A stretch of DNA of 64,000 nucleotides, taken from Candidatus Aminicenantes bacterium. Lineage in GTDB: Bacteria; Acidobacteriota; Aminicenantia; Aminicenantales; CAVYOD01. Under the pieces are notes generated by a model, which was not told where the DNA came from, did not search any database, and worked only from the letters and a program-made list of their open reading frames with translations. The stretch's first letter is position 1, and each line of letters starts with the position of its first letter. The stretch is taken from contig CAVYOD010000022.1 of the NCBI GenBank assembly GCA_963770045.1, forward strand, positions 41,173 to 105,172. The letters run 5' to 3'. Shown here piece by piece: positions 20,208 through 37,703 of this stretch. The translations under genes and the position numbers were made by a program.

Positions 20208-20279
20208 GTGGCTGAATTATAAGCAAGTGGAAGCAAAAAATCAATTTTAGAATTATCTCGGAATTTTCCATCTTCATGA

Positions 20280-20308
20280 TTGACAAACCGGGACTTTCTC
20301 ACTAAAAT
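20280..20308 (+). promoter_or_regulatory. near-consensus sigma-70 promoter upstream of hdrC (locus 1)
   Basis: TTGACA-17 nt-TAAAAT. Implies a ~250-nt leader before the hdrC ATG at 20567. Confidence 0.5.
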
Positions 20309-20472
20309 CTCGTCTGGCTATAAGCTTAAGTACAGTTTTCCTATAGTTTTGATATAGTTTATTGATGCAGGAAAAACTTGGGATGTACCGGTAGGCGGAT
20401 TTTTCTCTCGGGGTCTGCCTCCAAAATCGGTGAGTTGAGGTACAATTGAACTTGAAATCGAGCCTCATCTCC

Positions 20473-20508
20473 GGCGCGCCTCAAGGGGCCGGCGCGTCTT
20501 TCTTTGCC
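20473..20508 (+). terminator. terminator-like GC hairpin plus T-rich tract inside the hdrC leader
   Basis: GGCGCGCC-10 nt loop-GGCGCGTC stem (8 bp including one G:T) followed by TTTCTTTG, about 60 nt before the hdrC start. Confidence 0.35.
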
Positions 20509-20566
20509 GACTCAAAGACCGCATTCCCTCTTTATGACAATTCCCTGATTCTCTAAAGGAGGATTT

Positions 20567-21184
20567 ATGGATATCCAGAAAAAAGTTAAGTATGAAGAAG
20601 AATTGGACAGACATTTCCTGGAAGAGATCAAGGATATGTCCGGCTGCGAAGAGATCGACCGCTGCATTCAGTGCGGCACCTGCAGCAGTTCCTGCCCCAT
20701 GTCGATCTATATGGATTATCCCCCGCGCAAGATTATCGCCATGGTCAAGAACGGCTTTAGGGAAGAGGCCCTCAAGAGTTTCACGATCTGGCTCTGCCCC
20801 TCCTGCTACACTTGCCAGGTCCGCTGTCCCGCGAAAATCAAGATCACCGACGTCATGTACGCACTCAAGCGGAAGGCCATCGAGGAAAAAGTCTACCCGT
20901 CCCGCTTCGCCATTCCTGTGCTTGATAAGGAGATGTCAAAGCTGATCGCGGCCAACGGCCGGAGTTCCGATTTGTGGCTTATCCTGAACCTTTATCTCAA
21001 ATCCTGGAACCCCATGGGCCTTCTGAAAATGGCTCCTCTCGGACTGAAGCTCATCAAGACGGGCCGGATGAGCCTGAAAAAGGATGCCATCAAAAACAAG
21101 AAACAACTGCGTACGCTCTTAAAAGCGGTTGTAAGGAGGGAGCTCGATGAACGGCTATGTTTATTTCCCAGGCTGTTCCCTTAA
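20567..21184 (+). CDS. hdrC: heterodisulfide reductase subunit C-like (2x[4Fe-4S])
   Basis: 205-aa ORF with RBS AGGAGG. Motifs CIQCGTCSSSCP and CPSCYTCQVRCP. The 3' end overlaps hdrB by 38 nt. Confidence 0.85.
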   Translation: MDIQKKVKYEEELDRHFLEEIKDMSGCEEIDRCIQCGTCSSSCPMSIYMDYPPRKIIAMVKNGFREEALKSFTIWLCPSCYTCQVRCPAKIKITDVMYALKRKAIEEKVYPSRFAIPVLDKEMSKLIAANGRSSDLWLILNLYLKSWNPMGLLKMAPLGLKLIKTGRMSLKKDAIKNKKQLRTLLKAVVRRELDERLCLFPRLFP

Positions 21185-22031
21185 GGTGAGCGCCAAGCAT
21201 TATGAGGAATCCATCCTTCCTGTTTTCAGGGAAGTCGGACTGCCTCTCGCCGAGCTCGAAGACTGGAACTGCTGCGGCGCCACGGCCTACTCATCGGTGG
21301 ACGATACGATGGCCTCGGCCATCTGTGGCCGCAACCTTTCTCTGGCCGAGAAAACAGGAAAAGACATCATTGCCCCCTGTGCGGGTTGTTATTTGACACT
21401 CAAGAAGTCAAACAAGTTTCTGACCGGAGGTCTTCCCAAAGCCGAAAAAATCCTCAATGATCTGAGAACGGTCGGCTGTGAGTATCAGGGAAATGTCAAG
21501 GTCAAACACCCACTGGAAGTCCTGACCAAGGAGATCGGCCTGGAAAAAATCCGTGAGAGGGTCACCCGGAAGCTCAGCGGGATCAAAGTCGCCTGTTATT
21601 ATGGGTGCCAGCTCGTTCGGCCCTATACCGAGTTCGATGACCCGGATTATCCCATGTCGCTCGATCATCTCATGGAGACGATCGGCGCTCAGCCGGTCGA
21701 TTTTTCGGCCAAGACGCGCTGTTGCGGAGGATCCCTCACCGGCACAATCGAAAACGTCGGCCTCCGGCTGAACTACATCCTTCTCCGGGAAGCCAAAAAA
21801 AAGGGGGCTGATCTCGTCGTCACCATCTGCCCCCTCTGCCAGTTCAATCTCGAAGTCCTCCAAGACAAAATCGTGCGCACCTATAAACAGGACGTGAAGA
21901 TGCCTATTCTCTATTTCAGTCAGCTCATGGGACTGGCTTTTGGCCTGGCCAAGGAGGACCTGGGTTTTTCTCGTTCGATCATACCTCTCAAGGCCCTCTG
22001 GACCAAGCTCGAGAATGGAGGGAAAAGATGA
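21147..22031 (+). CDS. hdrB: heterodisulfide reductase subunit B-like (two CCG domains)
   Basis: 294-aa ORF. YFPGCSL, WNCCGA, APCAGCY, YYGCQ, RCCGG, CPLCQ motifs match the duplicated CCG-domain pattern. Confidence 0.88.
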   Translation: MNGYVYFPGCSLKVSAKHYEESILPVFREVGLPLAELEDWNCCGATAYSSVDDTMASAICGRNLSLAEKTGKDIIAPCAGCYLTLKKSNKFLTGGLPKAEKILNDLRTVGCEYQGNVKVKHPLEVLTKEIGLEKIRERVTRKLSGIKVACYYGCQLVRPYTEFDDPDYPMSLDHLMETIGAQPVDFSAKTRCCGGSLTGTIENVGLRLNYILLREAKKKGADLVVTICPLCQFNLEVLQDKIVRTYKQDVKMPILYFSQLMGLAFGLAKEDLGFSRSIIPLKALWTKLENGGKR

Positions 22032-22882
22032 GCAACCAAAACGGTCAGCCGAGAATCGGAGTCTTTGTCTGCGATTGCGGCACCAATATCGCCGGAAAAG
22101 TCAATGTGCCAGAAGTGGTCGAGTTCGCTTCCCATTTGGACGACGTCATTGTGGCCAGGGAATATAAATTCATGTGCTCGGACCCAGGCCAGGAACTGAT
22201 CAAGCAGAACATCAAGGACCATAACCTGAACCGAGTGGTCGTCGCCTCGTGCTCCCCCCTGATGCACGAACAGACGTTCCGCGAGGTCACGTTTGAGGGC
22301 GGCTTGAATCCTTTTTATTTCCAGATGTCCAATGTTCGCGAGCAGGTCTCCTGGGTGACCAAAGATCCCCAGCAGGCAACCAAAAAGGCCAAGGCGCTGG
22401 TCTCAGCGGCCGTCCGGAGAGTCGCCCTTCATGATCCCCTGACGAAAAAAGAAGTTCCCGTCCGTCCGGAAGTCTTGATCGTCGGCGGCGGGATCGCCGG
22501 AATCCAAGCCGCCTTGACCTACGCCAAGTCCGGGAAAAAAGTCTATCTTGTCGAGAAACAGCCATCCATCGGCGGGCACATGTCCCTGCTCGATAAGACC
22601 TTCCCTACCCTTGATTGTTCCGCCTGCATCCTGACGCCCAAGATGAGCGAAGTCGGAAAACATCCCAACATTGAGCTCCTGACCTGGAGCGAGGTGCAGG
22701 AGATCTCCGGCTACGTCGGGAATTTCAAGGCCAGGATCAAAAAGAAGGCCCGCTTTGTGGATATCGACAAGTGCAACGGCTGCGGCGCCTGCTGGGAAAA
22801 CTGCCCCACCACGATTACCCCGTCGGAACGGATCATCAAAAAAGGCCAGATTGTCATCAAGAAGGTGGACAAAGAAAACTAG
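22028..22882 (+). CDS. hdrA: HdrA N-terminal part (Cys-cluster, FAD-binding fold, first ferredoxin motif) encoded as a separate 284-aa protein
   Basis: GVFVCDCGTNIAGKV, VASCSPLMHE, LIVGGGIAGIQAAL, FPTLDCSACILTPK. Ends with CNGCGACWENCP. ATGA overlap with hdrB. Confidence 0.8.
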   Translation: MSNQNGQPRIGVFVCDCGTNIAGKVNVPEVVEFASHLDDVIVAREYKFMCSDPGQELIKQNIKDHNLNRVVVASCSPLMHEQTFREVTFEGGLNPFYFQMSNVREQVSWVTKDPQQATKKAKALVSAAVRRVALHDPLTKKEVPVRPEVLIVGGGIAGIQAALTYAKSGKKVYLVEKQPSIGGHMSLLDKTFPTLDCSACILTPKMSEVGKHPNIELLTWSEVQEISGYVGNFKARIKKKARFVDIDKCNGCGACWENCPTTITPSERIIKKGQIVIKKVDKEN

Positions 22883-22883
22883 C

Positions 22884-23252
22884 ATGAAACTCAAGGAAGT
22901 TCAGAGCATCCTCGACGCCGAGATCATCTGGGGAAACGAAGCCCAGTTGGAGATCGACATCGACTATGCCGGGGCTTCGGACTTGATGAGCGATGTCTTG
23001 GCCTTCAGCGAGCCTGGGCTTCTCTTCCTCACCGGACTGGCCCACGCTCAGTCCGTCCGGACCGCAAATATCATCGAGGCCAAAGCCATCATTTATGTCC
23101 GCGGCAAGAAGCCGGACATGGAAGGCCTGGAACTGGCCATGGAAAAGGGGATCCCCATCCTCTCTACGAGATGCATGATGTACGAGGCTTGCGGTCTCCT
23201 CCGCAAGCACGGACTCCCTGGAATCACCGAATTCCAAGAAAAAAAGGGATGA
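22884..23252 (+). CDS. DRTGG-domain protein (copy 1)
   Basis: Start set at ATG 22884, 2 nt after the hdrA-N stop. About 122 aa, MKLKEVQSILDAEIIWG...ASDLMSDVLAF...FLTGL...IIYVRGKKP. Resembles the small DRTGG proteins that accompany HydABC-type hydrogenase operons. Confidence 0.7.
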   Translation: MKLKEVQSILDAEIIWGNEAQLEIDIDYAGASDLMSDVLAFSEPGLLFLTGLAHAQSVRTANIIEAKAIIYVRGKKPDMEGLELAMEKGIPILSTRCMMYEACGLLRKHGLPGITEFQEKKG

Positions 23253-23698
23253 TGAACGGCCGAAATGTCTTCACTCGAACTTTCGATATTACCGGCGGCG
23301 ACTTTAGCAAAGCCGGGAATGTCTCGACCCGGATCAAGGACATTCTCAAAGAAATCGGGATCGACTCCTCGATCATCCGCCGCACCGCCATCGCTTCCTA
23401 CGAGGCCGAGATGAATGCGGTCATGTACGCTCATAAGGCTGCGATCACACTGATCTTGAACCCGAAACTCATCGAGCTCAGAATCGATGACCAGGGGCCG
23501 GGGATCCCGGACATCGGATTGGCCATGAAGGAGGGCTATTCTACGGCCACTCAGGAGATGCGCGAGATGGGGTTTGGCGCCGGGATGGGTCTCCCCAATA
23601 TCAAGAAGAATGCCGATAAATTCGAGATCTCATCGACCTTGGGCAAGGGCACCCACCTCGATATCTTTTTTTATCTGGACCAGAAGGGAAAAGCATGA
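23249..23698 (+). CDS. anti-sigma-factor-type Ser/Thr kinase-like ATPase (HATPase_c)
   Basis: Start at ATG 23249 (ATGA overlap). G-box region RIDDQGPGIPD...GFGAGMGLPNIKK...GKGTHL. Confidence 0.7.
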   Translation: MMNGRNVFTRTFDITGGDFSKAGNVSTRIKDILKEIGIDSSIIRRTAIASYEAEMNAVMYAHKAAITLILNPKLIELRIDDQGPGIPDIGLAMKEGYSTATQEMREMGFGAGMGLPNIKKNADKFEISSTLGKGTHLDIFFYLDQKGKA

Positions 23699-25015
23699 TC
23701 CCGTATTTCCACTCGATCCGGGTTGATCGCGAAAAATGCGACGGGCGGATGAAGTGCATGCGGATCTGTCCGACCGAGGCCATCAGAGTCAGAAAAGGGA
23801 AGGCGACGATCATCCCAGAAAAATGCATCGACTGCGGAGAATGCATCACGGCCTGCCCGAACTCGGCTATTATCCCACTGACCAACCCCTTCGGAGAGCT
23901 GACCAAGTTCAGGCACACGATCGCCATCCCGTCTCCAGCGCTTTATGCCCAATTCGGCCGAGAAATTCTGCCCGGGAGAATCCTGGCCGGGTTGAAAAAA
24001 ATAGGCTTCGATGACGCCCACGACCTTGCTTTCACAGCGGGAGAGGTCAGTTTCGCGATCCAGGAATACGTCCGAGAATACAAAGGCCCCAAGCCCCTGA
24101 TATCGAGCACCTGCCCGGTTGTCGTCCGGCTCATCCAAGTCAAGTATCCTGACTTCATAGACCTTATCCTCCCGATTGATAATCCCAGGGAGATCGCCGC
24201 CCGGGAGATCAAAAAAAAGAAATCCAAGCAGTTCGATCTCGAGGAGAAAGAAATCGGCACGTTCTACCTGACTCCCTGTCCGAGCAAGATGATCTCCATC
24301 CGCCAGCCGGCCGAGAAAGGGTCAGTCTCACCTCGACGGGGCCATTGCTATCCAGGATATTTACGGGCCTCTCCTTGCCGCCATGGAAACTATCGAATCG
24401 GAGAGCTACAGGAAAGCGCTGGAGAGCGTTTGCATCCTCGGCATCGGCTGGGCCATGGTGGGAGGGATCTGCCGCACCCTCCGCATGAAGAATTCACTGG
24501 TCGTGTCCGGTTTGCCGGAAATCATCAGAGTTTTCGACGACATCGAGCGCGGAAAGCTGCGCAACATTGATTTTATCGAGGCCTACTCCTGCCCTCAGGG
24601 ATGCGTCGGGGGTTCGCTCACCGTCGAAAACGTCTATATCTCCTATAACAAAATCCTCAAGTTGATTGAGACTCTCGAATTCGAGAAAATCAAGGCGTGT
24701 CCAGACATCCGGGAAGTCAGGAACCTCTACCGGCAGCGGTATTTTCATCTCGAGGGCAAAATAGAACCCCGGCCTCTTAAACCCCTGGATGAGAATCTGG
24801 CCAGGGCCATTTCGAAAAGGAAAGAAAAAGAAAAGATCTATGAATCTTTGCCGCAAACAGACTGCGGAGCCTGCGGCTCCCCGAGCTGCCAGGCCTTCGC
24901 CGAGGATCTCGTCCAGGGAGAGGTCAAGCTCACCGACTGCATCTATAAACTTGCGGGCCTGGAGCGGGCCCGCCCAGAGAGCCTCCCCGGGCAAATAAAA
25001 AAGGATAAACCATGA
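23695..25015 (+). pseudogene. sensory-type [FeFe]-hydrogenase-like protein (2x[4Fe-4S] N-domain, H-domain with variant motifs, C-terminal Cys4 domain); one frameshift as sequenced
   Basis: ORFs 23695-24570 and 24383-25015 join at a GGG run (24319-24321). Motifs: CPTEAI/CIDCGECITACP, L1-like SSTCPVV, L2-like TPCPSK, L3-like EAYSCPQGCVGG, C-terminal CGACGSPSC-x16-C. Confidence 0.75.
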
Positions 25016-25354
25016 AACTCAAAGATGTCGCCGAGAAACTGGGCCTCGAAGTTTTGACCTGCAGAGACAAGACTCGATGGGGAAGTCAGCAACGGTTACG
25101 CCAGCGACCTGCTTTCGGATGTCATCGCTAATTCCCGGGAAAAGAATCTCTGGATCACGCTCCAGACCCATCAAAACATCGTCGCCGTCGCCAAACTCAG
25201 GGACCTGGCCGGGATCATCCTGGTCAATAATCGCCAGCCGGAGGAGCTGACCCTGAAAAAGGCCGAGGAAGAGAAGGTCGTCTTGTTGGCCACTCCCCGC
25301 GCGGCCTTCGAGATTTCGGCCCAACTTTACAGTCTGATGAAAGCCAGGGATTGA
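25012..25354 (+). pseudogene. DRTGG-domain protein (copy 2), frameshifted as sequenced; absent from the supplied ORF track
   Basis: ATG 25012 (ATGA overlap) gives MKLKDVAEKLGLEVLTCRDK. Skipping one base near 25069-25072 continues LDGEVSNGYASDLLSDVIANSREKNLWITLQTHQNIVAVAKLRDLAGIILVNN...LYSLMKARD, with stop at 25352-25354. Confidence 0.7.
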
Positions 25355-25357
25355 TAG

Positions 25358-26089
25358 ATGCTCAAGATTTTTAAAGCGGACCTGCACATTCATACGTGCC
25401 TTTCGCCCTGTTGCGATCTGGAGATGTCCCCGCGAAGCATCGCCGAGCAGGCCAAAAAAAAGGAGCTTCAGATTCTGGGAATTTGCGACCACAACTCGGC
25501 CGAGAATGTCCCGGCGGTTATGAAAGCGGCCAGTCGATTCCAGATCCAAGTCATCCCTGGGATTGAGGTGACATCCCAGGAAGAAGTCCATATCCTGGCC
25601 CTTTTTGCCGACCTCGATTCAGCCTTCGCCCTGCAGGACATCATCTACGGTCACCTCCCCGGAGAAAATGATGAGGCGGCCTTTGGCATGCAGGTTGTGG
25701 TTGACGAGAACGGGGATGTCCTCGGATTTAACAAAAGGCTCCTCATCGGGGCCTCGACGATTGACCTGGAAGGGGTGGTCGTGCGAATCCACACCCTGGG
25801 AGGAATCGCGATCGCATCTCATATCGACCGGGAGGGATTCAGCCTGATCGGTCAGCTCGGTTTTGTCCCCGATAATCTCGGTCTCGACGCCCTGGAAATA
25901 TCTCCGCGGGTTTCATTTCAGACGGCCCGGGAGAGATTCCGTCCCCGCGAGCCTCTGACCACGTCATCGGACGCCCACTTCCTCAGAGATATCGGCCAGA
26001 GCTACACGTCGTTTTCACTTGAGGAGGCGACCCTGGGAGAAATCAAGAAGGCTCTCCTCAACCAGGACGGAAGGAGAATCCTGAACTAG
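25358..26089 (+). CDS. PHP-domain (polymerase/histidinol phosphatase-like) metal-dependent phosphoesterase
   Basis: 243-aa ORF. ADLHIHTCLSPC...GICDHNSAEN...ASHIDR...SSDAH motifs. Confidence 0.8.
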   Translation: MLKIFKADLHIHTCLSPCCDLEMSPRSIAEQAKKKELQILGICDHNSAENVPAVMKAASRFQIQVIPGIEVTSQEEVHILALFADLDSAFALQDIIYGHLPGENDEAAFGMQVVVDENGDVLGFNKRLLIGASTIDLEGVVVRIHTLGGIAIASHIDREGFSLIGQLGFVPDNLGLDALEISPRVSFQTARERFRPREPLTTSSDAHFLRDIGQSYTSFSLEEATLGEIKKALLNQDGRRILN

Positions 26090-26096
26090 GAGAGTC

Positions 26097-26675
26097 ATGG
26101 AAGACCTTTCCCTGCACATCCTGGACATCGCCGAGAACTCCGTCGACGCCCAGGCCAAGACCGTCAGGATCCGGTTAGCGGAAGACCAGCCCAAGGACCT
26201 TCTGGTCCTGGAAATCGCGGATGATGGAAGAGGGATGGACCAAGAAATGATCGAGCGCTCCCTAGACCCCTTTGTGACGACCAAGACGACCCGTAGCGTG
26301 GGCCTGGGCCTTCCCCTTCTGGCCGAAGCCGCCAGAGCAGCTAACGGGAAGCTGCGGATTCAATCGAGGCCCGGTCAGGGAACCCGGGTCAAGGCGACCT
26401 TCCAGTTGAGCCACATCGATACCAAACCGCTGGGAGACATCGCCCAGACCCTGATCACTCTGATCGTCGGGCATCCTGAGGTGGATTTTCTTTACTCCCA
26501 CAAAATCAATAGATTCCGATTTACATTCGACACCCGAGAGCTCAAGGACAAGATCGACGGCCTTCCCCTGCAAGCGCCGCAGGTCGTGAGCTTTATCAAA
26601 AAAAACATCAACGACGGGCTAGACCGAATAAGGAGGAAAAATGAACGAAGTCAAGATCACGGGAATTCTCGGTAA
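26097..26675 (+). CDS. HATPase_c-like ATP-binding protein
   Basis: 192-aa ORF. LHILDIAENSVDA (N-box-like), LEIADDGRGMD, GLGLPLL, GQGTRV. Confidence 0.7.
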   Translation: MEDLSLHILDIAENSVDAQAKTVRIRLAEDQPKDLLVLEIADDGRGMDQEMIERSLDPFVTTKTTRSVGLGLPLLAEAARAANGKLRIQSRPGQGTRVKATFQLSHIDTKPLGDIAQTLITLIVGHPEVDFLYSHKINRFRFTFDTRELKDKIDGLPLQAPQVVSFIKKNINDGLDRIRRKNERSQDHGNSR

Positions 26676-27096
26676 GTACGAATCTGATCCGAGCGATATC
26701 ATCTCCATCCTGCAGGACATCCAGGAAGCCTACAGCTATCTTCCGAGAGAGGCCTTGAAAGAGGTCTCGAAAGAGCTCAACATCCCGCTCAGCCGGATCC
26801 TGAGTCTGGCGACGTTCTACAGGGCCTTCAGCCTGAGGCCTAAAGGCAAACACCCCGTTCACGTCTGCCTGGGAACAGCCTGCCACGTGCGTGGGGCCCA
26901 GCTCGTCTTAGAAAAATTTGAACGAGAACTAGATCTCAAGACGGGAGAAACGTCAACCGATGGCCTCTTCAGTCTAGACATGGTTCGCTGTGTCGGATGC
27001 TGCGGCCTCGCCCCTGTCGTCCAGGTTGGGGAAGAAATCCACGGCAAGATTACCCAGACCAAGGTTTCTGGGCTGGTCAAGAAATATAAAAAGTGA
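26641..27096 (+). CDS. NuoE/HydC-like [2Fe-2S] thioredoxin-fold subunit
   Basis: 151-aa ORF. ATFYRAFSLRPKGKHPVHVCLGTACHVRG...CVGCCGLAPV. Confidence 0.88.
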   Translation: MNEVKITGILGKYESDPSDIISILQDIQEAYSYLPREALKEVSKELNIPLSRILSLATFYRAFSLRPKGKHPVHVCLGTACHVRGAQLVLEKFERELDLKTGETSTDGLFSLDMVRCVGCCGLAPVVQVGEEIHGKITQTKVSGLVKKYKK

Positions 27097-27109
27097 AGAA
27101 GGGGGAGAC

Positions 27110-27499
27110 ATGCCAAAACTCAACATTAACGATCTCGTAAAACTCAGAGAGCAGGCTAAGAAAACAACCCAGATCCGAGAGGGAGGAGAATACCGGGCCA
27201 AAATCAATGTCCACATGGGCACGTGCGGAATCGCGGCCGGGGCCCGAAACATCATGAGCGCCCTCCTCAAGGAGATCGAAGCGCGTGACGTCCGGGACGT
27301 CCTGCTCACCAATTCCGGCTGCGCCGGCCTCTGCAGCCACGAGCCGATGATCACCGTCGAGATGGCCGGCCGTCCTCCCGTCAAATACATCGACCTGACG
27401 GAAAAAAAGACCAAAGAGATTTTCGAAAAGCACATCCTGGGTGGGACGATCCTAAAAGATTACGCGTTGGGGATCGGCAGCGAAAAGACGGATTATTAA
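27110..27499 (+). CDS. thioredoxin-like [2Fe-2S] ferredoxin
   Basis: Start at ATG 27110 (GGGGGAG RBS). 129 aa. INVHMGTCGIAAGA...SGCAGLCSHEPM. Confidence 0.8.
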   Translation: MPKLNINDLVKLREQAKKTTQIREGGEYRAKINVHMGTCGIAAGARNIMSALLKEIEARDVRDVLLTNSGCAGLCSHEPMITVEMAGRPPVKYIDLTEKKTKEIFEKHILGGTILKDYALGIGSEKTDY

Positions 27500-27506
27500 G
27501 AGGTGT

Positions 27507-29345
27507 TTGAAAATGGCAGAGAAAACTAAAGAGAGAAGCTACAGGCTCCATCTGATGGTCTGCGCCGGGACTGGCTGCGTCTCCAACCACTCCTTTGAAG
27601 TCAAGGGGGCCCTGGAAAAAGAAATCAAGAAGCAGGGCCTGGAGAACGAAGTCCTCGTGGTCACCACCGGCTGCAACGGTTTTTGTGAGCGTGGACCTCT
27701 CCTCGTCGTCCAGCCGGGGAATATTTTTTATCAACAGCTGACGGTCAAAGATGTCCCCCATCTCGTCGAGGAACACTTTCTCAAGGGCCGGCCCGTCGCC
27801 AAATTGATGTACACTCCCCCCGAAGAAAAAAATCCTATCCCTGTTCTCAGCGATATCGATTTTTTCAAAAAACAAGTCTTGATCGCCCTCCGGAACCGCG
27901 GCTTGATAGATCCCGAGAAAATCGAGGATTACATCGCCCGCGATGGTTACAAGGCCATGGCCAAAGCCCTGACCGAGATGATCCCGGAGAAGATCATCAT
28001 GGAGATGACCTTCTCCGGCCTTCGCGGAAGAGGGGGAGCCGGATTCCCCACCGGATTGAAATGGCAGCTCGTCCGGAGCGCCGAGAGCGCCAACGGCGGA
28101 GGCAAATACATCATCTGTAACGGTGATGAAGGAGATCCGGGAGCCTTCATGGACAGAAGCATCCTTGAAGCCGATCCTCATTCGGTCTTGGAGGGGATGG
28201 TCATAGGAGCTAAGGCCATCGGCGCCTCCGAAGGGATCATCTATGTCCGGAATGAGTATCCACTGGCCGTGAAAAGAGTAAATCGGGCAATTGAACAGGC
28301 CAGGGAATATGGCCTCCTGGGAAAAGACATTTTGGGCACAGGCTTTGACTTTGATGTCAGAGTCCACAGGGGAGCCGGAGCTTTTGTCTGCGGAGAGGAA
28401 ACAGCCTTGATCTCGTCTATTGAAGGACGGCTGGGCGAACCCCGACCCCGGCCTCCCTATCCCGCCCAGAGCGGGCTCTTTGGAAAGCCCACCTGTATCA
28501 ACAATGTGGAGACTTGGGCCAATGTCCCGGTGATCATTGACCGCGGCGCCAAATGGTATTCGCGAATTGGAACCGAAACCAGCAAAGGGACAAAAGTCTT
28601 CTCCCTGGTCGGGAAGATCAATAACACCGGTCTGGTCGAGGTTCCCATGGGAATATCCCTGAGGGAAATCATCTATGACATCGGGGGGGGAATTCCGGGA
28701 GGCAAAAAGTTCAAGGCGGTTCAAACCGGCGGGCCATCGGGGGGGTGCATTCCCAAAGAAAAAATCGATTTGCCCATCGACTACGAAAGCTTGAGCCAGG
28801 CGGGTTCGATGATGGGCTCGGGCGGCATGGTCGTCATGGACGAAGACACCTGTATGGTTGATGTGGCGAGATACTTTCTCTCCTTTACCCAGGATGAGTC
28901 TTGCGGGAAATGCACACCCTGCCGTGAAGGGACAAAGGCTATGCTGAGCATTTTGACCCGGATCACCGAGGGGAAGGGCACCGGAGACGACATCGCTCTG
29001 CTGGAAGACCTGGCCCACTCCGTGAAGGACACCGCTCTCTGCGGCTTGGGGAAGACCGCGCCTAACCCGGTCCTGACCACTCTCCAGTATTTCCGGGACG
29101 AATATGAAGCCCATATCAAGGAGAAAAGATGTCCCGCCCATGTCTGCCGTCAGCTCAACGTGTACACGATCAACGCGCAAACCTGCGTCAAGGCGGGCCA
29201 CGGCTGTGATGTCTGCCGCCGCAACTGCGCCTCGGATGCGATCGCGGGCGAAAAAGGCGCTGCCCACAAAATTGACCAGCGTAAGTGCATCAAATGCGGC
29301 GTCTGCTATGATGTCTGCAATTTCGGCGCCGTGAAGGTTGAATAG
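27507..29345 (+). CDS. NuoF/HydB-like NAD(H)-binding flavoprotein with N-terminal [2Fe-2S] and C-terminal 2x[4Fe-4S] domains
   Basis: 612-aa ORF. MVCAGTGCVS..TGCNGFC, GRGGAGFPTGLKW, NGDEGDPGAF, ESCGKCTPCREG, CIKCGVCYDVC. Confidence 0.9.
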   Translation: MKMAEKTKERSYRLHLMVCAGTGCVSNHSFEVKGALEKEIKKQGLENEVLVVTTGCNGFCERGPLLVVQPGNIFYQQLTVKDVPHLVEEHFLKGRPVAKLMYTPPEEKNPIPVLSDIDFFKKQVLIALRNRGLIDPEKIEDYIARDGYKAMAKALTEMIPEKIIMEMTFSGLRGRGGAGFPTGLKWQLVRSAESANGGGKYIICNGDEGDPGAFMDRSILEADPHSVLEGMVIGAKAIGASEGIIYVRNEYPLAVKRVNRAIEQAREYGLLGKDILGTGFDFDVRVHRGAGAFVCGEETALISSIEGRLGEPRPRPPYPAQSGLFGKPTCINNVETWANVPVIIDRGAKWYSRIGTETSKGTKVFSLVGKINNTGLVEVPMGISLREIIYDIGGGIPGGKKFKAVQTGGPSGGCIPKEKIDLPIDYESLSQAGSMMGSGGMVVMDEDTCMVDVARYFLSFTQDESCGKCTPCREGTKAMLSILTRITEGKGTGDDIALLEDLAHSVKDTALCGLGKTAPNPVLTTLQYFRDEYEAHIKEKRCPAHVCRQLNVYTINAQTCVKAGHGCDVCRRNCASDAIAGEKGAAHKIDQRKCIKCGVCYDVCNFGAVKVE

Positions 29346-29356
29346 GAGGGCCAAAA

Positions 29357-31114
29357 ATGATTAACCTGACAGTCGACGGAAAGAAGGTTCAAGTTGAAGA
29401 AGGAGCGACAATCCTCCAAGCGGCCAAGAAGGCCGAGATCCAGATTCCGACACTGTGCTACCATCCTGTCGTCGAAGCCTACGCGGCCTGCCGGGTCTGC
29501 ATGGTGGAGTCTATGGTCAAGGGGAAATCCGAGTTGGTAACAGCCTGCAACACGAAAGTCCAGGAAGGGATGGAAGTCCAGACAAGATCAGAGCGCGCCC
29601 TGCGGGCCCGCCGGCTCAACGTGGAGATGCTCATGGCCCGGGCGCCCGCGGCGGAGCCTGTCCAGAAAATCGCCAGGGAGCTAGGAATCGAAAAGACCAG
29701 GTTTGAAATCAAAGATCCGGAAGAAAAATGCATCCTCTGCGGACTGTGCGTCCGGGCCTGCGAGCAAATCGTCGGAGCCAACGCCATCAGTTTTGTCGAT
29801 CGGGGGACCGACCGGAAGGTCATGCCTCCCTTCGGGGAACAATCCGAAGCCTGCATCGGCTGCACCGCCTGCGCCTATTTCTGTCCGACCGGGGCGATCT
29901 CGGTGGAAGATAAATACGGCCGGAAGGTCATCCACGACGAGCTTCATCTCGGCCCTTCGACAGCCATCCGCGTTCCCATCCGCCAGGCTGTTCCGATGGT
30001 CCCGTTTATTGACAAGGATGCCTGTATCCACTTCAAAACCGGGGAATGCAAAGTCTGCGAGAAGGTCTGCGACCGGCTGGCCATTGACCACAAGATGGAG
30101 GACAAGGAGATCGAGATCGAGGTCGGCACCATCATCCTGGCCTCGGGTTTCAAACCTTTTGATGCCAAGAGGATTCCCGCGTACGGCTACGGGAGGTACG
30201 ATAATATCCTCACAGCGATGGACTTTGAAAGGCTGGTCAATGCCTCGAGCCCGACCGGCGGAAAAATTCTCATGACCAACGGGGAAGAACCAAAATCGGT
30301 CGGCATCATCCACTGTGTCGGCTCCCGTGACGAAAATTACAACGAATATTGTTCCCGGGTCTGCTGCATGTATTCTCTCAAGTTCGCCCATCTGCTGCGA
30401 GAAAAAACCAAGGCCGATATCTATGATTTCTATATTGATATGCGCTGTTTCGGCAAGGGCTACGAAGAGTTCTACCACCGCCTTCTCGAGGAAGGAACAA
30501 AGTTCATCAGGGGGAGGGTCTCGGAGATCTCAAGTATCGCCCTGACGGCTCGGGAGGAAGGGAAACTCATCATCCGGGTAGAGGACACTCTCCTGGGAGC
30601 AGTCAGGAGAATCCCGGTGGACATGGCCATCCTGAGTGTGGGGCTGGAGCCCGGACTGGATCACAATCAACTGGCTAGGACTTTCAACATTTCCTGCAGC
30701 CAGGACACCTTCTTCCTGGAACGGCACCCCAAGCTCGCTCCGGTCTCGACATTTTCAGACGGCATTTTCCTTGCGGGGACCTGTCAGGGACCGAAAGATA
30801 TTCCGGATAGCGTCGCTCAAGCCGGGGCAGCGGCTTCGGAGGCCATGGCCCTGGCCGATAAAGGCACGGTCGAGCTAGAACCGGTGACGGCCTCGATCGA
30901 TGAGGAGCTCTGTTCGGGCTGCCAGCTCTGCGTCGGCCTCTGCCCCTTCACGGCCATCACGTTCGACAAGGAAAAAGAGATCTCGGCTATCAACGACGTT
31001 CTCTGCAAGGGCTGTGGAACCTGTGTCGCCGCCTGCCCGAGCGGGGCTTCCGCCCAGAAGCACTTCAGAGATGAGCAAATCTTCGCCGAAATCGAGGGGA
31101 TCCTTGTCGTTTAG
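29357..31114 (+). CDS. fusion protein: NuoG/HydA-N-terminal-like [2Fe-2S] + 2x[4Fe-4S] module joined to the C-terminal two-thirds of HdrA
   Basis: 585-aa ORF. N-part LTVDGKKVQV..IPTLCYHP..CRVCMVE, CILCGLCVRAC, CIGCTACAYFCP. HdrA part AIRVPIRQAVPMVPFIDKDACIHFKTGECKVCEKVC, HCVGSRD..YCSRVCCMYSLK, LAGTCQGPKDIPDS, C-terminal CSGCQLCVGLCP/CKGCGTCVAACP. Confidence 0.8.
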   Translation: MINLTVDGKKVQVEEGATILQAAKKAEIQIPTLCYHPVVEAYAACRVCMVESMVKGKSELVTACNTKVQEGMEVQTRSERALRARRLNVEMLMARAPAAEPVQKIARELGIEKTRFEIKDPEEKCILCGLCVRACEQIVGANAISFVDRGTDRKVMPPFGEQSEACIGCTACAYFCPTGAISVEDKYGRKVIHDELHLGPSTAIRVPIRQAVPMVPFIDKDACIHFKTGECKVCEKVCDRLAIDHKMEDKEIEIEVGTIILASGFKPFDAKRIPAYGYGRYDNILTAMDFERLVNASSPTGGKILMTNGEEPKSVGIIHCVGSRDENYNEYCSRVCCMYSLKFAHLLREKTKADIYDFYIDMRCFGKGYEEFYHRLLEEGTKFIRGRVSEISSIALTAREEGKLIIRVEDTLLGAVRRIPVDMAILSVGLEPGLDHNQLARTFNISCSQDTFFLERHPKLAPVSTFSDGIFLAGTCQGPKDIPDSVAQAGAAASEAMALADKGTVELEPVTASIDEELCSGCQLCVGLCPFTAITFDKEKEISAINDVLCKGCGTCVAACPSGASAQKHFRDEQIFAEIEGILVV

Positions 31115-31124
31115 GAAGAAACGA

Positions 31125-31172
31125 GGGGACGGTTGTCTTCTGGGATGTGAGGGGAGAGCCGTCCCCTTTTTT
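31125..31172 (+). terminator. intrinsic-terminator-like hairpin after the HdrA-C fusion gene
   Basis: AGGGGACGG...CCGTCCCCT stem (9 bp, long loop) followed by TTTTTT. Confidence 0.5.
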
Positions 31173-31180
31173 GAAAAAGA

Positions 31181-31209
31181 TAGAAAATTGTCGTTGACTT
31201 GGATATAAT
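31181..31209 (+). promoter_or_regulatory. promoter candidate upstream of mvhD
   Basis: TAGAAA-17 nt-TATAAT (perfect -10), about 50 nt before the mvhD ATG. Confidence 0.4.
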
Positions 31210-31259
31210 ATGACGTTTTATGGACGATCGGCCAATTCAAATCAGGAGGGATTTATAAG

Positions 31260-31706
31260 ATGAGCAATGGACCGTTTGAACCCAAGCTTGTTGGGTTCTT
31301 ATGCAACTGGTGCTCTTATACCGGCGCCGACCTTGCCGGAACAGCGAGAATGACCTATGCCCCCAACCTCCGCATCATCCGGGTCATGTGCAGCGGGCGC
31401 GTCGATCCTCAATTCGTCTTAAAAGCGTTCGCTGAGGGTGCTGACGGGGTGCTCATCTCCGGCTGCCATCCCGGAGACTGCCACTACCAAGAAGGGAATT
31501 ATAAAGCCTTGCGAAGAGCGAAACTCCTTTCCCGGGTGCTGCAGGAATTCGGCATCGAAAAGGAAAGATTTAGGCTGGAATGGGTTTCCGCTTCGGAGGG
31601 AGTCAAGTTCCAGCATGTCGTCAACGAGTTCACTGCGCAGGTCAAGAAACTGGGGCCGTTGGGTTTCAAAGCGAACGGAGGCAAGCATGAGTCAAGCCAA
31701 GCCTAA
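31260..31706 (+). CDS. mvhD: MvhD-type hydrogenase iron-sulfur subunit
   Basis: 148-aa [18 protein letters not shown]...[10 protein letters not shown]...GCHPGDCHY. Confidence 0.88.
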
Positions 31707-32667
31707 GGTGGCCTTTTACTGGTGTTCATCCTGCGGAGGATGCGAAGAATCCATCGTCGACCTAGCCGCGGACATTTTGAAAGTCGTCGCCGCGGTCGAC
31801 ATCGTCTTCTGGCCGGTCGCGTTGGATTTCAAGAAAAAGGATGTGGAGGCCATGCCCGACGGCTCGATCGCCGTGAGCTTCATCAACGGCGCTGTCCGGA
31901 CCTCAGAGCAGGAAGAGATGGCCCATCTGATGAGGAAAAAATCGCAGCTCGTCGTCGCGCACGGCGCTTGCGCTCATCTGGGCGGAATCCCCGGACTGGC
32001 CAACTTCTGGAACAAAGAGACGATCTTCCGAAAAGTCTATCACACAACCGTCTCCACGGACAACCCCAACAAGACCGTCCCTCAAGAGAAGAGCATGGTT
32101 GACAATTACGAATTAACTCTGCCCCGATTCTGGGACACGGTTTATCCCCTGGACAAGATCATCGATGTGGATTACTACCTGCCCGGGTGCGCGCCTCACC
32201 GTGATCTCATCATCAACGCCGTCAATGCCATTCTCGAAGGAAAGCTTCCGCCCAAGGGTGCCGTTCTCGCTCCGAATAAATCCTGCTGTGATGATTGCGA
32301 GAGGAACAAAACTAAGCCGGAAAAGCTCTCGATCAAGGAAGTCAAACGCCCCTACGAAATCCAGCTCGACCCGGAAAAGTGCTTCCTGGCCCAGGGGGTC
32401 ATCTGCATGGGCCCGGCCACCCGCGGCGGATGCGGCGAACGCTGCATCGAGGGCAACATGCCGTGCCGCGGCTGCATGGGGCCGACCGACCAGGTCTATG
32501 ACCAAGGGGCGAAATTCCTCTCCGCCTTTGCTTCCATCCTGGATACCAACGATGAGAAGGAAATCGAAAAAATCGTCTCGACGATCGTCGACCCTGCCGG
32601 GACCTTTTATCGTTTCAGCCTGCCCTCATCGATTCTCAGACGCAAAAGACTGGAGGCCGTAAGATGA
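31687..32667 (+). CDS. mvhG: Mvh-type (F420-non-reducing) [NiFe]-hydrogenase small subunit
   Basis: Start at ATG 31687 (GGAGG RBS; overlaps the mvhD end). [34 protein letters not shown], medial/distal cluster Cys motifs. Confidence 0.85.
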
Positions 32668-34124
32668 CCCAAAGAATAACCATCGATCCAATCACCAGGC
32701 TTGAAGGCCATGGAAAAATCGAGATCTTCTTAAACGACAAGGGCGACGTGGACCGGGCTATTCTCCAGGTCCCCGAGCTGAGGGGCTTTGAGCAGTTCGC
32801 CGTGGGACGGCCGGTGGAAGAAATGCCCCGGATCACTCCCCGCATCTGCGGAGTTTGTCCCATGGCCCACCACATGGCCGGAACCAAGGCCGTGGACGCC
32901 GTCTTTCACGTCGAACCGACACCCACCGCCCGGAAAATCCGGGAGCTGGTCTACAATGCCTTCACCATGGAGGACCACACCCTCCACTTTTTCTTCCTCG
33001 GCGGCCCGGATTTTGTCGTCGGGCCGCAGGCTCCGGCTGCTGATCGGAATATCCTGGGCGTTATCGGCAAGGTCGGGCTTGAGATCGGAGGCCGGGTCAT
33101 CCACATCCGCGAAGCGGTCCGGGAGATCATGGTCCACCTTGGCGGCAAGGCCATCCATCCGGTCCTGGGGCTGCCGGGCGGCGTCTCCAAGGCTTTGGAC
33201 GAAGAGCACAGGGTCAAGTTCCTGGAGACGGCCAAGGATGCCGTGGAGTTCGCTGAATTCGCCCTCCAGATCTTTGACGACGTCGTCCTCAAAAACAAAA
33301 CCTACGTCGATATCGTTGTCGGCGACGCTTATAAGATCAAGACCTACTACATGGGGATGGTCACGGACAAAAACCAGGTCGAATTCTATGACGGGGACAT
33401 CAAGGTTGTCGACCCAGAGGGAAAGGACTTCGCCCGTTTCAAGGCAAGCCAGTATCTCGAGCATATCGCCGAGCACGTCGAGCCCTGGACCTATGTCAAA
33501 TTCCCCTTCCTGAAGAAAGTCGGCTGGAAGGGCTTTGTCGAGGGGAAGGACAGCGGAGTTTACCGGGTAGCTCCGCTCGCCCGTCTCAATGTCGCCGACG
33601 GAATGCAGACCCCCCGGGCGCAAAAGCACTACGAGCGGATGTACGCTACCCTGGGCGGAAAGCCCGTCCACAACACCCTGGCCTTCCACTGGGCTCGCTT
33701 GATCGAGGCCCTCCAGGCCGCTGAGAAGATGGTCCAGCTTCTGGAAGACAAGTCCATTACCGGCAAAGATATCCGCACGATCCCGACCCAGACCCCGACC
33801 GAAGGGGTGGGTATCGTCGAAGCTCCCCGCGGCCTGCTGATTCACCACTACAAGACCGATGAGAAGGGGATCGTCACCGACGCCAACTTGATCGTGGCCA
33901 CGATCGGAAACGCAGCGGCCATCAACATGTCGATCGAGAAGGCGGCCAAGACGTTCATCAAGGGCGGGATCGTGTCCGAGGGACTCCTGAACATGGCCGA
34001 AATGGCCTTCCGTCCCTATGATCCCTGCCACGGCTGCGGGACTCATTCACTGCCCGGGGAAATGCCGCTGATCATCAATATCTACGACAAAGACAGAGAG
34101 CTGGTGAAGCAGCTCAAGCGATAA
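32664..34124 (+). CDS. mvhA: Mvh-type [NiFe]-hydrogenase large subunit
   Basis: 486-aa ORF. RLEGHG, N-terminal Ni-ligand motif PRICGVCPMAHH and C-terminal DPCHGCGTH followed by a 25-aa tail. Confidence 0.9.
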   Translation: MTQRITIDPITRLEGHGKIEIFLNDKGDVDRAILQVPELRGFEQFAVGRPVEEMPRITPRICGVCPMAHHMAGTKAVDAVFHVEPTPTARKIRELVYNAFTMEDHTLHFFFLGGPDFVVGPQAPAADRNILGVIGKVGLEIGGRVIHIREAVREIMVHLGGKAIHPVLGLPGGVSKALDEEHRVKFLETAKDAVEFAEFALQIFDDVVLKNKTYVDIVVGDAYKIKTYYMGMVTDKNQVEFYDGDIKVVDPEGKDFARFKASQYLEHIAEHVEPWTYVKFPFLKKVGWKGFVEGKDSGVYRVAPLARLNVADGMQTPRAQKHYERMYATLGGKPVHNTLAFHWARLIEALQAAEKMVQLLEDKSITGKDIRTIPTQTPTEGVGIVEAPRGLLIHHYKTDEKGIVTDANLIVATIGNAAAINMSIEKAAKTFIKGGIVSEGLLNMAEMAFRPYDPCHGCGTHSLPGEMPLIINIYDKDRELVKQLKR

Positions 34125-36180: not shown

Positions 36181-37528
36181 AGCGGCCAACATCCTGATCA
36201 TCGATGACGAAGAATCCATCCAGGATTCTCTCCGTCAGGTTCTGCGCAAAGAGGGCTTCCAGGTCAAGATTGCCAAGGACGGCCATGAAGGACTCGCCCT
36301 TTTCAACAGCGAGAATTATCAGGCGGTCTTCCTTGACCTGAGGCTTCCCGGGATCAAAGGCATGCAGGTGTTGAGCCAGATCAAAGAGACAAACCCCGAG
36401 ACTCCTGTGATTATCATCACCGGCTATGCTTCGATCGAATCGGCTGTCGAAGCCATCAAACGGGGAGCGTTTGATTATATGGCCAAGCCGTTTACGCCGG
36501 AGGAAGTGCGAATCATCACCAAAAAAGCCCTGGACAGCCGGAAAATGCTCATTGAGAATATCTATCTCCGGAGCGAGCTGGAAGCCAAGACCGATTCCCA
36601 GATGGTCGTGGGCAAGAGCATGGCCATGAAGAAGGTCATGGATATCATCTGCCGGGTGAGCCCGACCGAAACCACTGTCCTGATCACCGGAGAGAGCGGG
36701 ACGGGAAAAGAACTCATCGCCCAGGAGATCCATCGTCACAGCCTCAGGTTCAAAGCGCCTTTTGTCGTTGTCGACTGCGGGGCGCTCGTGGAGACCCTCT
36801 TCGAAAGCGAGCTTTTTGGCCACGTCAAAGGGTCCTTCACCGGGGCCCACGAAACAAAACACGGCCGTTTTGAAGTCGCCCACGGAGGCACGATTTTCTT
36901 CGACGAAATCAGCAATATCAGTCTCAACATCCAGGCCAAACTTCTCCGGGTCATCCAGGAGCGGGAAGTCACCCGGATCGGCAGCTCCAAGCCGATTAAG
37001 GTTGATGTCCGCATTCTCGCCGCGACGAACGAGAATCTGGCCGAGGCGGTAAGCAAAGGGAAGTTCAGGGAAGACCTTTTTTACCGTCTCAGCGTCGTCC
37101 CCGTCCATCTGCCGCCGCTCAGGGAAAGAAAAGAAGACGTCCCTTCTCTGGTGGAGCACTTTCTGCAAAAATATAACAAAAAGGCGAAAAAGAACATCAA
37201 AGGTATATCCCCGCAAGCCCTCAAAGCTCTGACGGAGTATGACTGGCCGGGAAACATCCGGGAGCTCGAAAACACGATTGAGCGAGCCGTTGTCCTTTCC
37301 AAGGGAAACGGTCTGGACATCGAAGACCTCATGTATCACGGCATTAGCGCCAGCTCCTCGATCCTCCCCCCGCTCGGTGGAAAATATAAAACCTTGGAAG
37401 AAATCGAAAAAGAATACATCAAGGGTGTCCTCAGGGCCCAATACGGAAACAAAAGCCGGTCCGCGAACATCCTCGGGATTGATCGTAAAACCCTCTGGGC
37501 CAAAATCAAAAGGTTCGGCTTCAAGTAA
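36173..37528 (+). CDS. sigma-54-dependent response regulator (NtrC family: REC-AAA+-Fis HTH)
   Basis: Start at ATG 36173 (overlaps the kinase stop). ILIIDDEESI..FLDLRLPG, GESGTGKE, ESELFGHVKGSFTGA, C-terminal NKSRSANILGIDRKTLWAKIKRFG. Confidence 0.9.
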   Translation: MVEAANILIIDDEESIQDSLRQVLRKEGFQVKIAKDGHEGLALFNSENYQAVFLDLRLPGIKGMQVLSQIKETNPETPVIIITGYASIESAVEAIKRGAFDYMAKPFTPEEVRIITKKALDSRKMLIENIYLRSELEAKTDSQMVVGKSMAMKKVMDIICRVSPTETTVLITGESGTGKELIAQEIHRHSLRFKAPFVVVDCGALVETLFESELFGHVKGSFTGAHETKHGRFEVAHGGTIFFDEISNISLNIQAKLLRVIQEREVTRIGSSKPIKVDVRILAATNENLAEAVSKGKFREDLFYRLSVVPVHLPPLRERKEDVPSLVEHFLQKYNKKAKKNIKGISPQALKALTEYDWPGNIRELENTIERAVVLSKGNGLDIEDLMYHGISASSSILPPLGGKYKTLEEIEKEYIKGVLRAQYGNKSRSANILGIDRKTLWAKIKRFGFK

Positions 37529-37686: not shown

Positions 37687-37703
37687 AGGCATATAAGTTG
37701 CAT
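37687..37703 (+). promoter_or_regulatory. sigma-54 (-24/-12) promoter upstream of the group 3b-like hydrogenase operon
   Basis: TAGGCAT-ATAAG-TTGCA. GG and GC are separated by exactly 10 nt. About 85 nt before ATG 37787. Confidence 0.65.

Follow-up and report, generated by a model that had tools for sequence, protein, structure and literature searches.

Four kinds of electron-bifurcating enzyme are recognised at present. The MvhAGD-HdrABC complex of methanogens, in which a heterodisulfide reductase (Hdr) is joined to a [NiFe] hydrogenase (Mvh), reduces free ferredoxin and has no site for nicotinamide adenine dinucleotide (NAD(H)), and FlxABCD-HdrABC of sulfate reducers has an NAD(P)H-linked module on HdrA. 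In HdrA-type modules, electrons enter through MvhD and the C-terminal ferredoxin domain, pass from the cluster adjacent to flavin adenine dinucleotide (FAD) to HdrC and HdrB, and leave at low potential through the inserted ferredoxin domain; a lysine at the flavin is their hallmark (10.64898/2026.04.10.717634). The bifurcating subunit BfuB (HydB) of Bfu enzymes differs from NuoF in its N-terminal thioredoxin-like [2Fe-2S] domain and C-terminal 2x[4Fe-4S] domain, and BfuA, which in its Type 2 form has clusters A1, A2 and A4 only, serves as the electron carrier that links a third substrate to the core (Schut et al. 2022, PMC9304861). Class II benzoyl-CoA reductase (BCRII), Bam[(BC)2DEFGHI]2 or Bam-Bfu, was predicted to couple a Bfu to an HdrA module (Schut et al. 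2022, PMC9304861), and the serial coupling of its two bifurcation modules has since been shown by cryo-electron microscopy (Appel et al. 2026 preprint, 10.64898/2026.04.10.717634). Here we describe a gene array from a Candidatus Aminicenantes bacterium that brings together hdr genes, mvh genes and a Bfu-type NADH/ferredoxin module. It occupies positions 20567-34124 of the window, that is, of the whole 64,000-nucleotide stretch analysed (contig CAVYOD010000022.1, positions 41,173 to 105,172). We infer a physical complex, with its wiring, direction and substrates, from these sequences, and put at roughly 55% the probability that the array encodes one soluble multi-subunit complex in which a Bfu module was inserted into the hdrA of an hdrCBA-mvhDGA operon and sits on the ferredoxin arm.

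The split HdrA and the module in its gap

The genes of the array are co-directional on the + strand and tightly packed. A preliminary description of the locus had given their order, coordinates and redox identities, and these were upheld by the open reading frame (ORF) listing and by Pfam and NCBIfam scans of the window ORFs. Its count of thirteen redox genes was too high, as we find ten; its six regulatory genes were all recovered, two of them broken in the window by single extra bases. Adjacent genes overlap by 4-38 nucleotides or are 1-13 nucleotides apart, so the overlaps and short gaps described earlier hold with the exception of one gap of 145 nucleotides (31115-31259).

The hdrA gene is divided in two. 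An N-terminal part of 284 aa (HdrA-N, 22028..22882, +) corresponds to the first 40% of HdrA, and the other 60% is carried by a 585-aa fusion protein (29357..31114, +). Residues 7-265 of HdrA-N align with residues 3-261 of HdrA from Methanothermococcus thermolithotrophicus (5ODC_A, E 8e-99), and residues 165/198-583 of the fusion protein align with residues 245/265-649 of the same chain (E 1e-113 to 3e-122); the possibility, raised at the outset, that the 585-aa protein is unrelated to HdrA can therefore be set aside. The break falls at about residue 262, within the inserted ferredoxin domain, and the two pieces are exact complements. On the NCBIfam HdrA2 model, which represents HdrA fused to MvhD, HdrA-N covers positions 1-258, the fusion protein 262-640 and MvhD 647-775. 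A single-polypeptide HdrA is not found in the array, the remainder lying 6.5 kb downstream of HdrA-N and joined to BfuA.

The first motif of the inserted domain, CxxCxxCxxxCP (C249-C259), is the final feature of HdrA-N, and the fusion protein bears the second motif (C223-C238). The FAD site is likewise composite: its GxGxxG loop and CxxC (C197, C200) are on HdrA-N, and the ligands of the FAD-side [4Fe-4S] cluster are on the fusion protein (C320/332/336/337, equivalent to C386/399/403/404 of 5ODC_A) together with K342, which aligns with HdrA K409. The remaining parts are the N-terminal [4Fe-4S] domain of HdrA-N, whose Cys sets comprise C15, 17, 50, 75, 197, 200 and 249-259, and the C-terminal ferredoxin domain of the fusion protein (C519-560). 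The residue roles used here reportedly go back to work by Wagner and colleagues in 2017. Over the two polypeptides the HdrA feature set is complete (FAD domain, adjacent [4Fe-4S] cluster, lysine, CxxC and three cluster domains), and neither half alone makes up a full FAD site or a full inserted ferredoxin domain. Because each of these is split over both proteins, HdrA-N and the fusion protein would have to reassemble.

Conservation was counted in 27-64 homologues per subunit. Nine of the ten Cys of HdrA-N are invariant in 58/58 homologues and C200 is kept in 54/58, and the stop after residue 284 is conserved as well (median ORF 284 aa in the 58 homologues). In the fusion protein, 28/28 motif Cys and K342 are invariant (30 homologues). 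Since the stop is conserved and every ligand retained, we rejected the view of hdrA-N as a decaying pseudogene.

The N-terminal portion of the fusion protein (residues 1-196) is a short BfuA with one [2Fe-2S] and two [4Fe-4S] motifs, and the HdrA C-part occupies residues ~198-585; ~20 residues separate the last BfuA motif from the HdrA-derived segment. Residues 2-196 match the short BfuA of Wor-Bfu (9MQX_A, E 3e-40), and residues 1-196 contain Fer2_4 and two 4-Cys motifs with no motif for a His-ligated cluster, which is the composition of a Type 2 BfuA. The earlier proposal that an HdrA-derived protein occupies the slot of HydA was thus borne out: a HydA/NuoG-type N-terminal Fe-S domain is followed by HdrA residues ~265-650. 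In public records this protein goes by generic names ("heterodisulfide reductase subunit A" or "2Fe-2S iron-sulfur cluster-binding protein").

Two further Bfu subunits are encoded just upstream. The NuoE/HydC/BfuC-like subunit (26641..27096, +; Pfam 2Fe-2S_thioredx, E 4e-48) has NfnC, 9MQX_C and HydC as its top PDB matches and four invariant Cys; like BfuC, it carries one [2Fe-2S] site and is encoded beside BfuB. The 612-aa NuoF/HydB/BfuB-like flavoprotein (27507..29345, +) comprises 2Fe-2S_thioredx (residues 13-89), Complex1_51K, NADH_4Fe-4S and a C-terminal Fer4 domain (555-609), and aligns colinearly over residues 12-609 with subunit B of NiFe-HydABCSL (7T2R_B, 870 bits); its Cys are conserved among homologues. 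A lack of sites for flavin mononucleotide (FMN) and NADH in this protein had been named beforehand as a possible flaw of the proposal, but the Complex1_51K FMN/NADH domain is present. With this domain and the extra clusters, the protein has the features by which Schut et al. (2022) recognise BfuB. Judged by domain content, the module in the HdrA gap appears to be of the bifurcating type, with the catalytic part of HydA replaced by the C-terminal 60% of HdrA. Between the two genes lies one for a small thioredoxin-like protein of ferredoxin fold (27110..27499, +), with a weak Pfam match below the cutoff (23.2 bits); only three Cys (C39, C71, C75) are conserved in 36 homologues, and cluster binding is putative.

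The array begins with hdrC (20567..21184, +), for an Fe-S subunit with two [4Fe-4S] motifs (Pfam Fer4_8) and eight Cys invariant in 27 homologues, whose top NCBIfam match is HdrC, below the equivalog cutoff. It is followed by hdrB (21147..22031, +), in which the CCG domain occurs twice (Pfam, E 6e-28). Both Cys sets of HdrB (C10, 42, 43, 78, 81 and C154, 192, 193, 228, 231) are kept in 37-39 of 39 sequences, and the two CCG domains are the predicted non-cubane cluster sites at which a disulfide would be reduced. None of HdrA, HdrB and HdrC belongs to the CoM-S-S-CoB (coenzyme M-coenzyme B heterodisulfide) reductase equivalogs, their scores being far under the NCBIfam cutoffs (HdrB 208 bits against 345; HdrA2 379 and 452 against 1100).

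At the other end are mvhD (31260..31706, +; Pfam FlpD, E 9e-57), for a [2Fe-2S] adaptor subunit with five Cys invariant in 64 sequences, mvhG (31687..32667, +; Pfam Oxidored_q6), for the hydrogenase small subunit with twelve invariant Cys, and mvhA (32664..34124, +; Pfam NiFeSe_Hases), for the large subunit. The best NCBIfam families of the three are VhuD, VhuG and VhuA (419 bits for the last), all under their cutoffs. MvhA conserves the NiFe ligands C62, C65, C455 and C458. Its L1 motif RICGVCPMAHH fits ICGxCxxxH, and in its L2 motif PYDPCHGCGTH, compared with AYDPCxxCATH, G replaces A. It scores 402 bits against 5ODC_F (E 3e-119) and 395 bits against 7T2R_D, a marginal difference. From these features MvhA is likely a group 3c [NiFe] hydrogenase of the Mvh/Vhu type.

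Synteny, fused subunits and exchanged partners

All window proteins were compared by tblastn with 73 related loci. The complete array from hdrC to mvhA is present in about 25 species-level Aminicenantes-type genomes, about 13 more loci end at contig edges and two Chloroflexota loci share the order. The locus closest to the window, L001, shares 92% nucleotide identity with it. A chimeric assembly was rejected, as the gene order repeats in dozens of independent metagenome-assembled genomes (MAGs). Many loci (L002, L004, L007, L009, L012 and others) are titled "uncultured Eubacteriales/Clostridia bacterium"; with identical synteny and 75-85% identity to the Aminicenantes proteins, these labels look wrong.

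The two Chloroflexota MAG loci (L037, L038) read hdrA-N, nuoE, nuoF, fusion, mvhD, mvhG, mvhA without any regulatory cassette, and in L038 hdrC and hdrB lie just 5' of hdrA-N. Contiguous hdrA followed by mvhDGA occurs in Anaerolineae, Thermoleophilia, Planctomycetota and archaeal loci. In a neighbour-joining tree of HdrA-N, which carries no support values, the Aminicenantes sequences group together and the split Chloroflexota forms stand beside contiguous HdrAs. Because contiguous operons are near relatives and the block lies inside hdrA, a Bfu module would have been inserted into an hdrCBA-mvhDGA operon. This reverses the polarity of the preliminary description, in which Mvh was appended to a HydABC-like operon: it is the NuoE/NuoF/short-BfuA block that sits inside hdrA.

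Gene fusions elsewhere tie the same components together. The BfuA::HdrA-C architecture was found in at least a dozen distinct clusters at 50% identity in a library-wide search. HdrA-N and NuoE form a single polypeptide of 300-424 aa in four loci (L074, L076, L078, L079), and a BfuA::HdrA-C::MvhD polypeptide of 706 aa is encoded in L076. Since both HdrA-N::NuoE and BfuA::HdrA-C exist, each half of the inserted domain is covalently tied to a Bfu subunit in some lineage. Together with the interdependence of the HdrA halves and the cassette-free array of Chloroflexota, these cross-lineage fusions lend support to the earlier idea of one assembly with two flavins and four substrates.

The modules attached to this core vary. 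In L005 (4797-11328), nuoE, trx, nuoF, fusion and mvhD genes are followed, where mvhGA would be expected, by genes for an Fe-S protein, a molybdopterin formate dehydrogenase, a FocA-type formate channel, FdhD and MobA. On an unchanged core, a formate dehydrogenase appears to have taken the place of the hydrogenase there, mirroring the Mvh/Fdh exchange of methanogen Hdr. Relatives of the core adjoin acyl-CoA dehydrogenase and EtfAB in L074 (1796-10941) and L076 (363-9928), and an FAD-oxidase/CCG protein in L079 (584-7866), with no hydrogenase in any of the three. This suggests that the chimeric core is a general platform. It is tempting to go further and to see a widespread "double-bifurcating" class in uncultured anaerobes, although we hold this view tentatively and as somewhat less probable than not. 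In such a class, Bfu would sit on the low-potential arm of a split HdrA. A four-substrate core (mid-potential donor, HdrBC high-potential acceptor, NAD(H) and ferredoxin) would take swappable donor or partner modules, namely Mvh, formate dehydrogenase, Etf/acyl-CoA dehydrogenase or lactate-oxidase-like proteins. For Aminicenantes, such an enzyme would govern the balance between H2, NADH, ferredoxin and a pool of thiols.

Pyridine-nucleotide modules of another type are found at the same place. An HdrL-type HdrA with a GltD/NfnB-like insert in cis at the same inserted-domain site occurs in L050 and in the first cluster of L038, and this site of HdrA seems, from the sequences compared, to be a recurrent graft point for pyridine-nucleotide modules. 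A GltD/NfnB-like FAD/NAD(P)H module of ~460 aa is also encoded between NuoF and the fusion protein, or fused to NuoF (1055 aa, L038), in variant loci (L004, L010, L012, L016, L017, L022, L025, L030, L033, L034, L036, L045; L037, L038, L078), where it adds a third flavin. Variants with and without this module are interleaved in the Aminicenantes part of the HdrA-N tree. NuoE and NuoF are 46-76% identical compared with 80-89% for the flanking genes, and this greater divergence suggests cassette replacement inside the operon.

Proposed wiring and its alternatives

If the array encodes one complex, H2, a disulfide, NAD(H) and ferredoxin would be joined through FAD and FMN. The reassembled HdrA would pin the BfuA clusters, and thereby BfuB (with FMN, NAD(H) and ferredoxin-binding clusters) and BfuC, to its low-potential arm. 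In the H2-oxidising direction, electrons would run from MvhA through MvhG and MvhD to the C- and N-terminal clusters of HdrA and on to the bifurcating FAD. The high-potential electron would then leave through HdrC and HdrB to a disulfide, and the second electron would pass through the split inserted domain and the BfuA clusters and reach BfuBC at its FMN/Fe-S site; BfuBC would hand it to NAD+ and/or ferredoxin. Mvh would thus keep its canonical entry, and Bfu would replace free ferredoxin at the low-potential exit. Entry and exit routes of HdrA are reportedly also described in the 2017 work of Wagner and colleagues. By our own estimate the H2-oxidising direction is thermodynamically feasible, and so is the reverse with a thiol couple near -250 mV and ~1 Pa H2; at low H2 we expect the entire chain to be able to run in either direction.

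Several points weigh against this proposal. The wiring is deduced from adjacency in primary structure, and because HdrA is a dimer with domain-swapped contacts, the BfuA clusters could adjoin another HdrA cluster. An AlphaFold2 model of the fusion protein alone, built on a 28-sequence alignment, was confident only in the N-terminal ~130 residues (mean predicted local distance difference test score 59.7) and gives no geometric support. The transfer of very low-potential electrons into a Bfu port near -400 mV is wasteful of energy compared with canonical Mvh-Hdr. As all NCBIfam matches are under the equivalog cutoffs, no substrate can be assigned. One Aminicenantes locus (L020, 11746-12268) runs from hdrC to the fusion gene and then directly into a histidine kinase gene, mvhDGA being missing at this place. 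A G+C-rich hairpin before mvhD, together with the promoter-like site that follows it (31181-31209, +; promoter scan), leaves room in this organism for mvhDGA to be transcribed, to some degree, separately or in attenuated form. In BCRII, the only solved Bfu-HdrA complex, Bfu feeds the C-terminal domain and the MvhD-like adaptor (10.64898/2026.04.10.717634).

This last point leads to a rather unlikely alternative that nevertheless deserves serious attention, namely one complex wired as in BCRII. Bfu would be a confurcating input like BamGHI, drawing mid-potential electrons for the HdrA flavin from NADH and reduced ferredoxin, and Mvh would feed in or draw off electrons in parallel at that same potential; the enzyme would effectively be an NADH/ferredoxin hydrogenase like NiFe-HydABCSL with an HdrBC branch. 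The general picture of Aminicenantes is one of fermenters, which would need to get rid of NADH and reduced ferredoxin in the form of H2; this would suit such an enzyme, as would the near tie of MvhA between the NiFe-Bfu and methanogen structures. Bfu-to-HdrA coupling works in this way in BCRII itself (10.64898/2026.04.10.717634), and the H2 couple (-414 mV) fits the third-port potential of Bfu enzymes (PMC9304861). However, the covalent links that start at BfuA, or at NuoE in other lineages, lead to the halves of the inserted domain and not to the C-terminal domain or MvhD, both of which already have MvhGA as their partner, as in 5ODC. Moreover, HdrB, HdrC, K342 and the CxxC are strongly conserved, though a simple electron wire would have no need of them. 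The high-potential branch could, alternatively, end elsewhere than at a disulfide: in the same complex, HdrBC might serve a protein carrier such as an electron-transferring flavoprotein (ETF), as BamD does in BCRII. Bacteria of the Aminicenantes kind are not known to have CoM-S-S-CoB, and relatives of the core adjoin EtfAB/acyl-CoA dehydrogenase or the FAD-oxidase/CCG protein. BamD itself passes electrons to ETF and has no heterodisulfide binding (10.64898/2026.04.10.717634). We nonetheless consider a carrier of this sort improbable in the present array, since HdrB of the window keeps both CCG Cys sets, whereas most homologues of BamD have a disrupted distal cluster (10.64898/2026.04.10.717634), and no etf genes occur in or beside the array in Aminicenantes loci.

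The array might, lastly, consist of independent neighbours, namely HdrBC with an HdrA remnant, a Bfu enzyme that has an HdrA-derived subunit, and an Mvh with a transcript of its own. A 3.8-kb cassette does separate hdrA-N from nuoE, L020 lacks mvhDGA, and a strong hairpin with a T6 run and a promoter-like site precede mvhD. The hairpin had been reported in the preliminary description as an argument for a separate mvhDGA transcript. It is real (31123..31172, +; terminator-like, 12-bp G+C-rich stem followed by T6, from the sequence and a fold computation), and the stretch that contains it (31110-31265) has a minimum free energy of -45.1 kcal/mol (z = -2.85). It is also lineage-specific: a comparable hairpin with a T-run was seen only in the window and in L001, and the fusion/mvhD junction of relatives measures 11-21 nucleotides, or is a 4-nucleotide overlap in L038 of the Chloroflexota. 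For these reasons the hairpin is weak evidence for independence. Each HdrA half is, besides, incomplete for the FAD site and the inserted domain, yet all ligands are kept in both (~58 HdrA-N and 30 fusion homologues); Chloroflexota lack the cassette; and HdrA-N::NuoE and fusion::MvhD polypeptides exist in other lineages. That the genes merely lie side by side is, on this evidence, very hard to believe, and a single complex with Bfu on the ferredoxin arm of HdrA is the reading that we prefer.

Neighbouring genes and comparison with known systems

Genes 5' of hdrC, including one for an amidase, are on the opposite strand. The spacer before hdrC is unusually long (~360 nucleotides, window 20208-20566) and contains a promoter-like site near consensus (TTGACA-17-TAAAAT, 20280-20308) as well as a CT-rich tract whose length differs between the window and L001. 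A scan of the window for sigma-54 sites gave 20 matches against 21 expected by chance, with none upstream of hdrC.

The gap in hdrA also holds the regulatory cassette, all on the + strand: a DRTGG-domain gene (22884..23252; Pfam DRTGG, E 3e-4, below the gathering score), a histidine-kinase-like ATPase (HATPase_c 1, 23249..23698; Pfam and synteny), a putative [FeFe]-hydrogenase-like sensor (23695..25015), a second DRTGG-like gene (25012..25354), a PHP-domain protein and putative phosphoesterase (25358..26089; Pfam PHP, PHP_C) and a second histidine-kinase-like ATPase (HATPase_c 2, 26097..26675; Pfam). The sensor has 2x[4Fe-4S], Fe_hyd_lg_C and a C-terminal FeS domain, with Pfam matches on both of the two ORFs into which it falls in the window; alignment places a 1-nucleotide insertion at ~24316, and the gene is in frame in L001-L003. 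The second DRTGG gene, recognised by three-frame translation against L001 and L006, where it is intact, is frameshifted at ~25072. It has tblastn matches at this position in most loci, and the position of the first DRTGG gene is kept in Aminicenantes. A homologue of HATPase 2 lies directly 5' of nuoE in L005 and L026 and 5' of a BfuA-like gene in L075. Unlike the two adjacent frameshifted regulatory genes, whose extra bases are insertions relative to all relatives, every redox gene of the array is intact. L001 has a 1-nucleotide indel of its own, located in the fusion gene at the counterpart of window 29461; long-read indel error is therefore the favoured explanation of the cassette frameshifts, which could alternatively mean that the sensor cassette of this strain is truly decaying. 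Through its [FeFe]-hydrogenase-like sensor, the cassette probably adjusts the complex, or the expression of the complex, to H2 or redox state.

Downstream of the array (window 37787-42306) is a second [NiFe] hydrogenase operon, with genes for Fer4_22, FAD/NAD plus DHODB-FeS, small-subunit and large-subunit proteins. Its layout resembles group 3b or sulfhydrogenase-like enzymes, its large subunit is unusually long (585 aa), and its synteny with the array is conserved across most Aminicenantes loci. The interval that separates the two operons holds genes for a Cache/HAMP histidine kinase and for a sigma-54-dependent response regulator (window 34195-37528), also syntenic in relatives. A weak sigma-54-like site (AGGCAT-N5-TTGCA, 37687-37702) stands 85 nucleotides upstream of the second operon; sites of this quality occur at chance frequency.

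With MvhAGD-HdrABC of methanogens (5ODC) the array has in common HdrC, the two-CCG HdrB, all HdrA domains and ligands, MvhDGA and the order hdrCBA-mvhDGA. It differs in its HdrA, which is split at ~262 with NuoE, NuoF, short BfuA and the regulatory cassette in the gap, and in having an NAD(H) module. NiFe-HydABCSL of Acetomicrobium mobile (7T2R) likewise combines a BfuBC core with a [NiFe] hydrogenase, but its long BfuA sits directly on the hydrogenase small subunit, and it is without HdrA, HdrBC, MvhD and FAD. Wor-Bfu of the same species (9MQX; PMC12318220) has a 247-aa short BfuA of Type 2, which is the best structural match to fusion residues 2-196; its partner is a tungsten aldehyde oxidoreductase, and its BfuA is free-standing, unlike the HdrA fusion of the window. 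HdrL of Desulfobacterium autotrophicum is a fusion of HdrA and glutamate synthase (PMC2702500), in which one GltD/NfnB-like FAD domain lies in cis on an unsplit HdrA, whereas the window has a three-subunit Bfu with FMN.

The closest parallel is BCRII, the only characterised join of this kind: HydBC/Bfu-type BamGHI is combined there with HdrA-type BamE, MvhD-like BamF and HdrBC-like BamD, so that a complex of HydBC-type and HdrA-type modules is no longer without precedent. In BCRII, however, the BfuA subunit BamI feeds the C-terminal domain together with the MvhD-like adaptor, whereas it is the inserted domain that leads to a tungsten enzyme. The covalent linkage in the window points to the opposite polarity, with the input held by Mvh and Bfu tied to the inserted domain. 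BamE, furthermore, is a fused HdrA dimer in an enzyme without hydrogenase, whereas the window has a split HdrA and a hydrogenase. In the searchable literature we found neither an Hdr-Mvh-Bfu array nor a split HdrA joined to Bfu subunits described, although an earlier mention is possible; neither Aminicenantes nor Hdr is listed in the supplement text of Schut et al. (2022).

In summary, the array occurs commonly in the uncultured phylum Aminicenantes. It is easy to dismiss a split gene such as hdrA-N as a fragment, and the present case suggests that such genes can be functional halves. Were the proposed wiring true, the oxidation of H2 (or formate) would be balanced in a single machine with a thiol/disulfide couple, NAD(H) and ferredoxin, and models of these organisms' energy metabolism that simply name these genes "MvhADG/HdrABC" or "heterodisulfide reductase subunit A" would need revision. 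The fusions would then also be natural tethered constructs for studying the hand-over of low-potential electrons from HdrA to a partner. A combination of bifurcating kinds has so far been shown once, in the benzoyl-CoA reductase described in 2026; the array would be a second one, differently wired and equipped with a hydrogenase.

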